Assembly (NCBI GenBank): GCA_963789265.1
Contig: CAWBKB010000007.1
Coordinates: forward strand, 384,001-448,000
Source of the DNA: an uncultured delta proteobacterium
Lineage (GTDB): Bacteria; Desulfobacterota; Desulfomonilia; Desulfomonilales; Desulfomonilaceae
Length of the DNA: 64,000 nt
Direction of reading: 5' to 3'
Positions 19,915-31,808 of the stretch are shown one piece after another. The notes under the pieces are model-generated. The model searched no databases. It was not told the origin of the DNA and saw only the letters and a list, made by a program, of their open reading frames with translations. Position numbers and translations under genes: made by a program. The first letter of the stretch is position 1. Each line of letters opens with the position of its first letter.

Positions 19915-20731
19915 TATTGCGAGAAGCAAAGCTACCGAACAATCGGCGCCTTCATGCAGCAATCGTCATTCCGGGGCACGCGGTCCCGCGTTCGCGGGAC
20001 AGTAGGACCGGCATCTTGCCGGTCGTCAGTCAGACCGGCCTCAGCTTGCGTAGGATGCGGTGAGCCTCGCCAACGCGAGGGAACCGCATCGGTCGCGGCT
20101 CGGTCATTGAGGGACTCCTCGGCGAGATTTTTCGCGACCGATGCGGTTCATCCCCCGTGCCGCGGGATTCACCACATCCTACACACTCCTCGCAATGACA
20201 GGAAAACGGCATTTGTCCCGCGAAATTAGACTCACTGATACGGATTTTTTTCCCTTGACATAGCGCGAGGTCCTGTTCAAAATAGAGACTAATAGTTTCC
20301 CATAGAGAACACAGGCAGATGCCAACGTGCCTAAAACCGCTCTCAAACAGAGTCCAATGACGAAACAAGAGTTCGCAATCGTGAAACTTTTGCCGTTCAG
20401 AAACCCAGTTGGTAGAACGGCCCAGGCAAATGACAGGCAGGATGCCTGTCCCACCATCACATCCGTCCACTTTACCGGTGGGACAAGCATCCTGCCTGTC
20501 ATTGCGAGCGCAGCGAAGCAATCTTTCTTCTCGTTCCCGGGCTCTGCCTGGGAACGCCTGCCTTCGAGGCTCTGCCTCACCTATGATAATGAAATAAAGC
20601 CAGTTTGCGGGCAGAACCCGCGAGATCTGGATTCCCAGGCGGAGCTTGGGAACCAGAAACCCTAAATCTTCTTGCTGGGACAGGCTTACAGCCTGTCTAT
20701 TAGGAATGACAGGCAAGATGCCTGTCCCACT
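19915..20731. repeat. Mosaic of several REP families between iclR and hcrB
   Basis: GACAGGCAGGATGCCTGTCCCAC copies, GTCATTGCGAGCGCAGCGAAGCAATC, TCCCAGGCGGAGCTTGGGA, GTAGGATGCGGTGAG...CACCACATCCTAC. Confidence 0.75.
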
Positions 20732-24530: not shown

Positions 24531-24820
24531 GGTGGGACAGGCTTCCAGCCTGTCTATTGTGAATGACAGGCAGGATGCCTGTCCTATTATCAATTCTTCA
24601 CCCTCTTACCAGTAGGACAGGCTTCCAGCCTGTCACTTTCTTGGTGGGACAGGCTTCCAGCCTGTCTATTGGGAATGACAGGCAGGATGCCTGTCCTACT
24701 ATCAATTCTTCACCCTCTTACCAGTAGGACAGGCTTCCAGCCTGTCACTTTCTTGGTGCGACAGGCTTCCAGCCTGTCTATTGGGAATGACGGGCAGGAT
24801 GCCTGTCCTACTATCAATTC
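24531..24820. repeat. REP cluster with a 112-bp tandem period downstream of the RAYT gene
   Basis: Repeated GT(G/A)GGACAGGCTTCCAGCCTGTC and GACAGGCAGGATGCCTGTCCTAC; CCCTCTTACC at 24601 and 24713. Confidence 0.9.
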
Positions 24821-24821
24821 C

Positions 24822-25271
24822 TCACATCCGACGTCCTGCCCAGCGATAATCCTCAATCTCCGGCCACCGCTTCACAGGATTTCCCAGAATGTATTCTGTC
24901 TTCTGAAGCAACTCCGCTTCATCCCTCACAATGCGGTCAAAGTACTCGTCCTGCCAGACTGGCACGGCCCTTGTCCGAGTTTTTCTCAACGCGTTGGCGG
25001 TAAAAGATTTCCACGAATGGACGATCTGTTGCAAAGAATGCGTGTCAAAGGGGGATACGAGTACATGCACATGATCATCCATGACAACATAGGCAAGGAG
25101 CTCGTAGCGCTTGCCATCGAAATGTCTTATCGCGTCGGCCACCAAGGTCCTTTCCTCGGGATCGAGAACGGGTTGGGCCTTTCCAAGACGCCAGGTGACA
25201 AAGTAAAAGGAGCTCTCCATTCGCCAATGCGGGAGTTTCCGCCGATATGTGATTAAACGGGGTGTTTTCAA
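24822..25271 (-). CDS. REP-associated tyrosine transposase (RAYT, Y1 HUH family)
   Basis: YRRKLPHW, YFVTWRL, YVVMDDHVH (HUH), SWKSFTA, WQDEYFDRIVRD, YILGNPV; REPs on both sides; TTG start after GAGGT. Confidence 0.88.
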   Translation of the reverse strand: MKTPRLITYRRKLPHWRMESSFYFVTWRLGKAQPVLDPEERTLVADAIRHFDGKRYELLAYVVMDDHVHVLVSPFDTHSLQQIVHSWKSFTANALRKTRTRAVPVWQDEYFDRIVRDEAELLQKTEYILGNPVKRWPEIEDYRWAGRRM

Positions 25272-25432
25272 AGGCGAGACCTCTTTGCTCTGACCAATGA
25301 CAGGCAGGATGCCTGTCCCACTATCAATTCCCACCTTACCAGTAGGACGGGCTTCCAGCCTGTCATTTTCCTGGTTGCCAGGCAACGCCACCACACCAAA
25401 GGGGTGATTCATTTCCCGCGCCGCGGAATTCA

Positions 25433-25687
25433 TCATGCCTCACGCGAACCCCTCTCTTGTCGTTTCTCGGTAGTTCCATCGCATCTCTCGCGCGTTGCCA
25501 ATGACGGCACTAGAATTCTCACATTCGGATCGTGAATGCCTTTCAAATCAAGCATGTCTTGTGCGCCAACTCTCAATGACTCTAGAAGTTCCTCTTGCGT
25601 CCGTTCCTGGGCGTTCACGCCAGGCAGATCTGTCAACCAGCCGATCCACCATCCCTCGGCTTTCTCTATTACTGCGTTATATTCCAT
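25433..25687 (-). CDS. hicB: HicB-family antitoxin (C-terminus possibly degenerate)
   Basis: MEYNAVIEKAEGWWIGWLTDLPGVNAQERTQEELLESL. Confidence 0.75.
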   Translation of the reverse strand: MEYNAVIEKAEGWWIGWLTDLPGVNAQERTQEELLESLRVGAQDMLDLKGIHDPNVRILVPSLATRERCDGTTEKRQERGSREA

Positions 25688-29400: not shown

Positions 29401-29688
29401 CTACAAGTATTCATATAGATCCCGCCATTCGGGATTCATTGCTTCGATGAGGTCGATTTTTTTCTGGCGAGAGCCTGCCTTTATCTGTTTCTCACGGGCA
29501 ATGGCTGCGTGCACGTCATCTGTGACCTCATAGAACACCAGCTTGGAAACGTTGTACCGGTGAGTAAAACCCGGTACCAGCTTCTCTCGGTGCTGCCAGA
29601 CGCGTCTCCTGAGGTCGCGGGACACCCCCATGTACAGAACCGTGTTACTGCGATTGGTGAGGATGTTGACGTGGTATTGTCGATACAC
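29401..29688 (-). CDS. GIY-YIG nuclease family protein (small, stand-alone) 1
   Basis: YHVNILTN..VLYMGVSRDLRRRVWQH..GFTHRYNVSKLVFYE..AIAREKQIK..NPEWRDL. Confidence 0.88.
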   Translation of the reverse strand: MYRQYHVNILTNRSNTVLYMGVSRDLRRRVWQHREKLVPGFTHRYNVSKLVFYEVTDDVHAAIAREKQIKAGSRQKKIDLIEAMNPEWRDLYEYL

Positions 29689-30898: not shown

Positions 30899-31053
30899 GT
30901 CGTCATTCTCGCGCACGCGGGAATCCAGGCATTGAATCTCAGTGGGACCGGCATCTTGCCGGTCGTCGTCATTCCCGCGTACGCGGGAATCCAGACTGGA
31001 CCCCGGATCTAGTCCGGGGTGACGACGTCATCCTCGCGCACTCGAGAATCCAG
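30899..31053. repeat. Downstream part of the 30-bp direct-repeat array (3 units)
   Basis: GTCGTCATT(C/T)-type repeats at 30899, 30965 and 31024; 36-bp and 29-bp intervals. Confidence 0.85.
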
Positions 31054-31054
31054 G

Positions 31055-31348
31055 CTATAACGTAATGACTTCGTACAGGTCTTTCCAATCCGGGTTCCTT
31101 TGCTCTATCAGATCCAACTTCCAAGCCCTTCTCCATTTCTTGATCTGTTTTTCCCTTGCTATTGCACTTTCGGCGGTATCATGAACTTCAAAATAGACGA
31201 GCCTGTTCACACCATACTTCATTGTAAAGCCTTCTACTAACTTTTGCTTGTGCTGCCAGGTCCTCTGAATCAAATTGGATGTCACCCCTGTATACAAGGT
31301 TCCGTTACGTTGACTCGCCAAGATGTAGACATGAAATTGCTTACTCAC
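31055..31348 (-). CDS. GIY-YIG nuclease family protein (small, stand-alone) 2
   Basis: FHVYILASQRNGTLYTGVTSNLIQRTWQHK..GFTMKYGVNRLVYFE..AIAREKQIKKWRRAWK..NPDWKDL; GAGG RBS then GTG. Confidence 0.9.
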   Translation of the reverse strand: MSKQFHVYILASQRNGTLYTGVTSNLIQRTWQHKQKLVEGFTMKYGVNRLVYFEVHDTAESAIAREKQIKKWRRAWKLDLIEQRNPDWKDLYEVITL

Positions 31349-31387
31349 TTCAACCTCATCTGGACCCCGGATCAGGTCCGGGGTGAC

Positions 31388-31808
31388 GGCGTCATTCTCG
31401 CGTACGCGAGAATCCAGACGAGGAGGGATCGTGCTAGAACCCAGGGGTCCTGAGTCGTCATTCTCGCGCACGCGGGAATCCAGACTCTGAATGACAGGCA
31501 GGATGCCTATCCCACTAAAGTCGTCATTCCCGCGGCACGCGGGAATCCAGACGATCTTGGTTGCCTCATCGGTACGCAGATCACTCGTCGTCATTCCCGC
31601 GCACGCGGGAATCCAGAACCGGCTGCCTCGATCATACTGACCGTGAAACCGGAGGTCGTCATTCCCGCGCACGCGGGAATCCAGGCCTAATGCTGTTACA
31701 CCTGGCACGACGTGAGGGAGTTGTCATTCTCGCGCACGCGGGAATCCACGCTGGACCCCGGATCTAGTCCGGGGTGACGGCATCATTACCTCGCACTCGG
31801 GAATCCAT
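31388..31808. repeat. CRISPR-like array: 7 palindromic 30-bp direct repeats with unique 35-38-bp spacers; no cas genes
   Basis: Consensus GTCGTCATTCCCGCGCACGCGGGAATCCAG at 31388, 31454, 31520, 31587, 31655, 31720 and 31779 (degenerate); spacers 36, 36, 36, 38, 35 and 29 bp. Confidence 0.88.

Follow-up and report, generated by a model that had tools for sequence, protein, structure and literature searches.

In a 64,000-nt stretch of DNA from an uncultured delta proteobacterium (the window, by which this whole stretch is meant), a 30-nt unit is present ten times between positions 30899 and 31808. The array that it forms is regularly spaced and its inserts are mutually unrelated, as would be expected for a canonical CRISPR array. 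Two of the inserts carry a repetitive extragenic palindrome (REP) of the family found on the flanks of a REP-associated tyrosine transposase (RAYT) gene in the same window. The questions raised by this locus are what built the array, and whether REP sequence was captured in it as spacers, as the first-pass annotation had proposed. The evidence described below points to off-target integration: the type I-C Cas1-Cas2 resident in this genome probably acted on a mobile hairpin, giving rise to a natural 'neo-CRISPR'. In what follows, coordinates without a prefix are those of the window, C1–C7 are contigs of the same 6.06-Mb genome, and G001 and the like are other genomes.

The array unit is a dispersed hairpin

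The unit begins with CGTC and ends with CCAG. Units 7 and 8 contain the published 28-nt NTS motif exactly (31589–31616 and 31657–31684), and units 1, 2 and 5 differ from it by one mismatch. Across the genome this motif has 6 exact matches, and 105 when up to three mismatches are allowed. A canonical CRISPR repeat is confined to its arrays; the present unit is dispersed genome-wide in 169 copies at 147 places, nearly all of them solitary. The array repeat is a CGTC-type REP, a member of a second REP superfamily, and is not the CRISPR repeat of this genome. Because the unit is this dispersed CGTC-type REP/NTS hairpin, the array is not built on a CRISPR repeat. An Rfam search of the array matched no family, CRISPR repeat families included. 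Neither cas genes, nor a leader, nor a repeat like the resident one was found at the array; the sole Cas1 of the genome is encoded on contig C1, where the adjacent 32-nt repeat is a different one.

The CGTC-tagged REPs of Neisseria are the dRS3 repeats, which are reported to have no transposase of their own (Di Nocera et al. 2013, PMC3733652). The NTS motif, which includes dRS3, is the target of SsnA, a GIY-YIG nuclease of about 94 residues (Nat Commun 2025, PMC11893778). The latter report describes SsnA as cleaving a few bases upstream of the motif on single-stranded DNA; the ssnA gene typically has NTS motifs on its flanks. Microcystis phage MaAM05 (MW495066.1), a 274-kb cyanophage, carries the same hairpin motif at 11 places and was the sole phage record matched.

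The commonest arrangement in the genome is a composite, in which a GTAG-type REP arm, the hairpin unit, a second hairpin (hairpin B) and an inverted REP arm follow one another. Hairpin B (CTGGACCCCGG...GGGGTGACG) shares the CGTC...CCAG architecture of the unit in the opposite sense. A REP arm lies directly upstream of 26 of the 169 units, hairpin B directly downstream of 43, and an upstream REP arm is combined with a downstream hairpin in 19. Examples of the composite were seen at C1:279311, C1:758180 and C6:77631, and in the window at 30942–31026.

The single Cas1 of the genome is a type I-C Cas1c (501.9 bits against a cut-off of 385). Its locus on C1 holds cas1, cas2, cas4 and cas3 along with divergent genes for Cas7, a Cas8c-like protein and Cas5c; Cas1c, Cas2 and Cas4 make up a resident adaptation module. 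The CRISPR array of this locus (C1:319934–321683) consists of 27 identical 32-nt repeats, and its spacers measure 33 (eight), 34 (eleven), 35 (five) or 36 nt (two). Its spacers 7 and 8 are identical, and one target containing a ribosome-binding site and a start codon is represented by both spacer 1 and spacer 11, in closely similar variants. The Cas8c-like region (L003 16988–19134, equal to C1:326987–329133) has two overlapping open reading frames of 481 and 262 residues with a weak Csd1 match, and may represent a split or very divergent large subunit.

Spacing and duplication at three hairpin loci

On the plus strand, the array starts with unit 1 (30899–30930), which comes to 32 nt when the GC following the 30-nt unit is included. 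Insert 1 (30931–30964, 34 nt) has a GTAG-type REP arm at 30942–30964 that abuts unit 2. Unit 2, hairpin B and the degenerate unit 3 occupy 30965–31053. After a small GIY-YIG nuclease gene on the minus strand (31055–31348), a second copy of hairpin B and unit 4 (31360–31419) lead into a run of alternating units and inserts: insert 4 (31420–31453; 34 nt, unique), unit 5 (31454–31485; 32 nt), insert 5 (31486–31519; 34 nt), unit 6 (31520–31552), insert 6 (31553–31586; 34 nt, unique), unit 7 (31587–31619), insert 7 (31620–31654; 35 nt), unit 8 (31655–31686) and insert 8 (31687–31719; 33 nt, unique). Insert 5 contains an inverted GTAG-type REP arm at 31493–31515 with the usual GAAT and TAAA flanks. 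Unit 9, a third copy of hairpin B and the degenerate unit 10 (31720–31808) end the array. The triplet of unit 2, hairpin B and unit 3 thus recurs at 31720–31807 (family D2; 88 nt, 86% identical), and the two 59-nt intervals in the array are hairpin B, not spacers.

Contigs of two public sequencing runs (X1 and X2), which may be the source sample of this genome, reproduced pieces of the array without differences, apart from two one-base variants. The extra G of unit 6 (31534) was missing from the X1 and X2 contigs, and the extra A of unit 7 (31617) was missing from one X1 contig (depth 7.3 of 17.8). One X2 contig joined 30991 to 31489; this joint probably derives from another locus. The contigs of four runs spanned no gain or loss of a unit.

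The successive periods of the window array are 66, 66, 67, 66, 68 and 65; placing unit 6 one base later gives 66 and 67 for the third and fourth. Without the two one-base extras, as in the public contigs, the periods become 66, 66, 66, 66, 67 and 65. Two further loci, each of two units, show the same CRISPR-integrase footprint (C7:124588–124682 and C4:156237–156332); their periods are 65 and 66. In each of the nine full units, the next bases are A or G and then C (in one case after the extra A), and the copied part of insert 7, described below, begins immediately past this dinucleotide. Hence, the duplicated target is 32 nt long, and the inserts of the window array measure 34, 34, 34, 34, 35 and 33 nt. 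The inserts of the two mini-arrays are 33 and 34 nt, with permitted targets of 30–33 and 30–34 nt. The target is as long as the 32-nt resident repeat, and all eight inserts (33–35 nt) fall within the range of the 26 resident spacers (33–36 nt).

The variants of the tandem units are private to them: the copies lying in tandem or within the array were 2 of 2, 2 of 2, 2 of 2 and 2 of 3 in the genome. The variant of unit 1, for instance, is shared with unit 5 and has no further copy. The unit duplications arose in place. Both mini-arrays lie between unit and hairpin B in composites that are ordinary in all other respects.

Direct repeats of at least 26 nt around a unique insert were searched for in the whole genome at periods of 40–110. 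Periods of 65–68 were found only in the real CRISPR array and at these hairpin loci, the tandem repeat at C3:1469–2453 being excluded. The latter is a 66–68-bp repeat of nine similar units, and is not CRISPR-like since its linkers are alike. At C1:861364–861394 (period 61), a unique insert of 30 nt is bracketed by a direct repeat of 31 nt, which has no relation to the hairpin and corresponds to none of the arrays in this genome.

When the unit was aligned with the true CRISPR repeat in the exact register of the duplication, 19 of 32 positions were identical. This identity was reached by 20 of 200,000 in-register shuffles, and by 27 of 5,000 shuffles when the best of all registers was taken. 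All three founder units were among the 38 most repeat-like of the 169 units.

The pairwise identity of the inserts was 0.09–0.40. Tandem duplication with divergence was considered for the array and was rejected, the inserts being unrelated. It is very improbable that the locus is an orphan array left by a lost CRISPR system, or a 66-bp tandem duplication with linkers diverged past recognition, even though the spacing is regular and the repeat variants differ between units as in an old array. The same geometry is seen independently at two other loci, in ordinary composites and with identical, fresh copies. Within the window array, units 7 and 8 are identical, the inserts are unrelated, and one of these is a perfect copy of a distant site. 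The unit family is also far older and wider than any single array.

Taken together, the lengths of target and insert point to the resident integrase. Cas1c-Cas2, with Cas4, would have used the hairpin as a surrogate CRISPR repeat at three places in the genome. Each event would have inserted a fragment of 33–35 nt at the hairpin and duplicated the 32-nt target, and successive events would have produced a leaderless 'neo-CRISPR' array. Its transcripts are probably not processed into working guides, since the hairpin is displaced within the unit by 5–6 nt towards the 3′ end, relative to its place in the true repeat. Such a lack of processing would explain why self-derived inserts are tolerated.

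Origin of the inserts

Insert 7 is an exact copy, over 35–36 nt, of a unique intergenic stretch on the minus strand (C5:828811–828848), and no hairpin is near this source. It sits between units 7 and 8. Since these flanking units are identical, the event looks recent. As regards the direction of copying, the source region was not conserved in five congeners and had no Rfam match.

Insert 7 is the one insert of the eight that could be traced to DNA elsewhere. The two REP-family inserts had no exact source, and five inserts had no match in the genome. The hairpin arrays thus hold one exact self match and two REP-family members among eight inserts; none of the 26 spacers of the real array was self-matching or REP-derived. 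No other genomic copy of insert 4 was found at up to 8 mismatches. Three unique inserts of the window array matched nothing in 50,697 phage records nor, as 30-nt cores, in IMG/VR. In the JGI metagenomes, one insert core was searched without a match, and no array of this unit variant was found.

The two REP-bearing inserts

The RAYT gene is located at 24822–25436 on the minus strand, with GTAG-type REPs on its flanks (e.g. 25299–25321). Its product matched Pfam Y1_Tnp and scored 85.8 bits with NCBIfam REP_Tyr_transpos, for which the cut-off is 80. The REP pattern had 21 matches in the window compared with none expected from 100 shuffles, and 334 REP cores were counted in the genome at up to 4 mismatches, amounting to 0.13% of its length. 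A multicopy palindrome tagged with GT(A/G)G is therefore present together with a RAYT gene that it flanks, as is typical of GTAG-type REPs. A 112-bp tandem repeat of alternating REP variants (24531–24825; 2.6 copies, 97% matches) overlaps the downstream end of the minus-strand RAYT reading frame (24822) by a few bases.

The first-pass annotation had described two 36-nt spacers as copies of this REP family. Both intervals do measure 36 nt, provided that the unit is counted as 30 nt. The interval 31484–31519 holds ATGACAGGCAGGATGCCTATCCCAC, which is one mismatch from the REP at 25297–25321 beside the RAYT gene, as had been stated. The interval 30929–30964 holds GTGGGACCGGCATCTTGCCGGTC as described; its match to 20002–20024 is near and not exact (GTAGG instead of GTGGG), and an exact 26-nt copy was found at C6:266843. 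It had been argued that a REP inserted later should have lengthened its interval. This holds, since both REP intervals keep the length of the others. The frequency of REP-derived inserts is likewise far above background, being 2 in 8 compared with about 8 in 10,000 random 36-mers (a value for the whole REP core, calculated by us from the genomic REP count).

Capture of REP sequence as a spacer, the conclusion which had been drawn from these facts, is plausible. It fits the 34-nt length of the inserts and the demonstrated capture of insert 7, and requires a reason for the composite-like orientation of both. The REP of the interval 30929–30964 adjoins unit 2, and hairpin B comes next after this unit, which is exactly the order of the composite. 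An inverted REP arm within 14 nt downstream of a unit was seen for only one of the 169 units in the genome (unit 5, with insert 5); in the relative G002, a unit is directly followed by GAAT and an inverted REP. For neither REP insert did the assembly contain a full-length source. The alternative, that these REPs were native to the vicinity of the hairpin, would account for both orientation and junctions, and needs two coincidences at 36 nt. The REP inserts are flanked by units differing at one or two bases, by which they would be older than insert 7, and this age may explain why exact sources no longer survive. On the integrase reading, one insert is the cell's own DNA, and the two REP-bearing inserts would probably be self fragments from the abundant REP-hairpin composites.

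Orthologous arrays were looked for in the intergenic region bounded by the genes for YGGT and acetyl-CoA hydrolase. This interval had unrelated content in G001 and was about 10–290 bp in G004, G005 and G006. As these regions hold other content or almost nothing, there is no allele to compare.

It had further been suggested that the array reflects interaction or competition between two selfish repeat systems. This part of the proposal did not stand: the array repeat is itself a dispersed REP, and nothing suggests that REPs are targeted by the array or in competition with it. A working CRISPR-like array whose REP spacers act on the RAYT/REP system would explain why whole REP cores occur in two of eight inserts against about 0.08% of random 36-mers, and why the inserts keep a standard length. 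We nevertheless give it very little credence. The genome's CRISPR repeat is a different one; the array repeat matches no Rfam family and has no cas gene nearby, and its hairpin appears off-register for guide processing. The REPs are still abundant, with 334 copies, and the real array carries no REP or self spacer in 26.

Hairpin doublets in other genomes

When each species was represented by one genome, a scan gave at least 120 loci with two hairpins 53–77 bp apart. Among the loci listed, most multi-unit arrays were plain tandem repeats with similar linkers, and many doublets had non-identical cores or duplicated flanks. The hairpin must therefore cluster by other routes too. For the 82 listed linkers without a similar neighbour, a period of 60–62 was dominant (30 linkers), and 65–68 was seen in 14.

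Genomes with unique-linker doublets were examined for Cas1 in two sets of five, the second set being picked before the arrays of its genomes were seen. Cas1 was found in 2 of 5 and 5 of 5, respectively; G033 had a Cas1 fragment only, at a contig end. The doublet period agreed with that of the resident CRISPR array in four genomes. G037 has a doublet of period 61 and an array of 155 repeats at 61. In G039, two doublets of 61 accompany an array of 61, and in G040 a doublet of 60 accompanies one of 61. In G038, a doublet of period 66 (target at most 38 nt, insert at least 28 nt) is found along with an array of period 65–66, which has a 36-nt repeat and spacers of about 30 nt. The agreement extends to 4 of the 6 readable other genomes, or 5 of 7 with the present genome included. 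It supports the integrase reading without proving it.

Two of the genomes examined had features of their own. In G035, a Magnetococcales draft, a larger dispersed element (e.g. L106, L114) recurs dozens of times in identical, 'empty' form. In a few of its copies, the hairpin is duplicated around differing inserts of 30–34 nt with a period of 61, even though the assembly yielded no Cas1. In G036, of the Nitrospirales, a mini-array with a repeat of about 25 nt and a period of about 43 lies near a weak Cas1 match (C1 ~799–800 kb; L179 9053–9569). Sources for the inserts of G031 and G035 were searched for and none was found.

The same loci bear on another explanation, that the array is a hairpin-intrinsic mosaic as in Neisseria. 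In this case the hairpin would have moved or recombined by itself, perhaps helped by the Ssn nuclease of the array, the REPs would be its usual neighbours, and the 66-bp period would be a coincidence. The unit is indeed dispersed and normally abuts REP arms. A GIY-YIG gene is present in the array, and homologues of it adjoin hairpin doublets in 9 of the 120 listed loci of other phyla. Hairpin arrays and doublets occur at many periods, also where Cas1 was not found or where CRISPR periods differ. The Neisseria elements are described as lying mostly in large clusters, many of them in mosaic intergenic regions among other repeat families (PMC3733652). However, Ssn proteins are single-strand nucleases and are not known to join DNA (PMC11893778). 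A mosaic leaves unexplained the 32-nt duplication reaching 2 nt past the 28-nt motif on both sides, the insert length of 33–35 nt in eight of eight, and the insert copied from a site with no hairpin nearby. It also leaves unexplained why the inserts are mutually unrelated, whereas arrays elsewhere have similar linkers. We regard such a mosaic as unlikely, though deserving of attention.

Weighing the integrase reading

Several observations speak against integration by Cas1-Cas2. In this genome, the duplication of the C4 mini-array must end at CCAG, which shifts its register by 2 nt from that of the main array. No empty allele of any of the three loci was found. The orientation and junctions of the REP inserts are the same as native neighbours would give. 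The protospacer-adjacent motif (PAM) of type I-C systems is TTC. The source of insert 7, the one source compared for a PAM, is flanked by GTG and GCC, with no TTC in either orientation.

In other genomes, the pattern used found no hairpin doublet in 30 relatives, though at least G001 and G005 have Cas1. Among the listed loci, the hairpin forms plain tandem arrays in many phyla and at many periods, and a coincidence of period is not negligible, because 14 of the 82 unique linkers elsewhere are at 65–68. The periods disagree in G032 (doublets 61, arrays 72–79) and in G036 (a doublet of 61 with non-identical cores, arrays 70–74 and about 43). No Cas1 was found in G031, G034 and G035, which are all draft assemblies, that of G031 being only 1.5 Mb. 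In the four genomes with agreeing periods, hairpin and resident repeat show no significant similarity, the observed identity being reached by 129–634 of 2,000 shuffles.

We still consider off-target integration the probable origin of the array, in view of the unit duplications in place, the exact geometry of target and insert at three loci, and the insert copied from C5.

The GIY-YIG genes and a possible coupling

The GIY-YIG gene within the array encodes a small, single-domain protein (Pfam GIY-YIG, E = 7.6e-17), its start codon at about 31348 being our reading of the frame. NTS motifs flank the gene, as in the published NTS-Ssn pairs. Judged by its domain, its size of about 100 residues and these flanking motifs, the protein would be Ssn-like. 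The genome holds five small GIY-YIG genes, each with a flanking hairpin family. The other four are at 29401–29688 of the window (minus strand), C7:55837–56133, C5:170657–170947 and C1:1097852–1098136, and are flanked by hairpin families of their own, of the GTCATTGCGAG...GCAATC type or the CCCCGG type. This suggests several nuclease-and-motif pairs within one genome. The association of GIY-YIG genes with hairpins was considered as a new finding and was dropped, having already been published (PMC11893778).

A coupling of three systems may be imagined, in which Ssn cuts beside the hairpins would furnish REP-bearing ends to Cas1-Cas2, the hairpins would serve as surrogate repeats, and NTS-type hairpins would be recurrent seeds of arrays in many phyla, each with the geometry of its resident integrase. 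It would explain why the end of the insert at 30931–30964 falls no more than about one base from the Ssn cut site that the published mapping predicts (PMC11893778). It would also explain the roughly 100-fold over-representation of REPs among the inserts. We hold this wider scheme to be doubtful.

Comparison with known systems

The origin of new CRISPR arrays and repeats is an open question, and off-target integration has been shown mainly with forced expression in E. coli. The present locus appears to be a natural array that grew stepwise on a mobile hairpin, with lengths equal to those of the resident type I-C array and with one traceable insert. It would be an uncommon natural example of the way in which a new CRISPR array may originate. 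In four genomes of other lineages, doublets of this hairpin agree in period with the resident CRISPR array, a pattern that is checkable at scale. Programs that find CRISPR arrays will call such loci arrays, and 'spacers' in them that match self or REP sequence should not be taken for self-targeting immunity.

The GTAG-tagged REPs and REPINs that Bertels and Rainey are said to have described in 2011, together with RAYTs, resemble the REP in the two inserts, which has GT(G/A)G at its start and is found flanking a RAYT gene. The clustering of hairpins interleaved with short repeats is like that in the mosaic elements of Neisseria and the bacterial interspersed mosaic elements (BIMEs) of E. coli, in which the interleaved pieces are repeat families of 50–150 bp. 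The present loci differ in that five of their eight inserts are unique and a sixth has one distant source copy, all of them being 33–35 nt long. In the intergenic mosaics of Neisseria, dRS3-type hairpins cluster among short repeats, a place taken here by hairpin B and the REP arms (PMC3733652). Both CGTC- and GTAG-tagged REPs coexist in this genome, as they do in several species; the regular nesting of GTAG REP, CGTC hairpin, second hairpin and inverted REP, and the spacer-like inserts, are points in which it departs from the accessible account of Di Nocera et al. (PMC3733652).

The units fit the NTS motif, and the gene of about 100 codons with flanking hairpins resembles ssnA (PMC11893778). 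The available portion of that paper mentions CRISPR only as a tool of genome engineering, in the introduction and the references, and contains nothing on unique inserts of spacer size. Our search of the literature, which did not extend to the supplements of the Ssn paper, found no report linking NTS or CGTC-REP hairpins with spacer integration.

Off-target integration by Cas1-Cas2 that founds new arrays was reported for E. coli (Nivala et al. 2018, via 10.1101/148544, PMC7054753 and PMC6698737), and Pyrococcus Cas1-Cas2 integrates in vitro at non-CRISPR sites sharing features of the repeat (PMC6698737). As far as can be judged from these sources, the neo-CRISPR of Nivala, Shipman and Church (2018) is similar to our array in its spacer-sized insert and its repeat-sized duplication of a non-CRISPR target, in its dependence on a resident adaptation module, and in the features that its targets share with the repeat. 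It arose as single events under overproduction of Cas1-Cas2 of type I-E, whereas the present case is natural, has up to six inserts in a row, and belongs with a type I-C system whose role we infer. The target here is a high-copy mobile hairpin, and there is self or REP-derived sequence among the inserts. Taken singly, the hairpin, the GIY-YIG gene paired with it, the system of GTAG REPs and RAYTs, and the formation of neo-CRISPR loci are all known already. What seems new is their conjunction, namely, a natural multi-insert array on an NTS hairpin with exactly the resident geometry, with self and REP-family inserts, and with a hint of recurrence across phyla.

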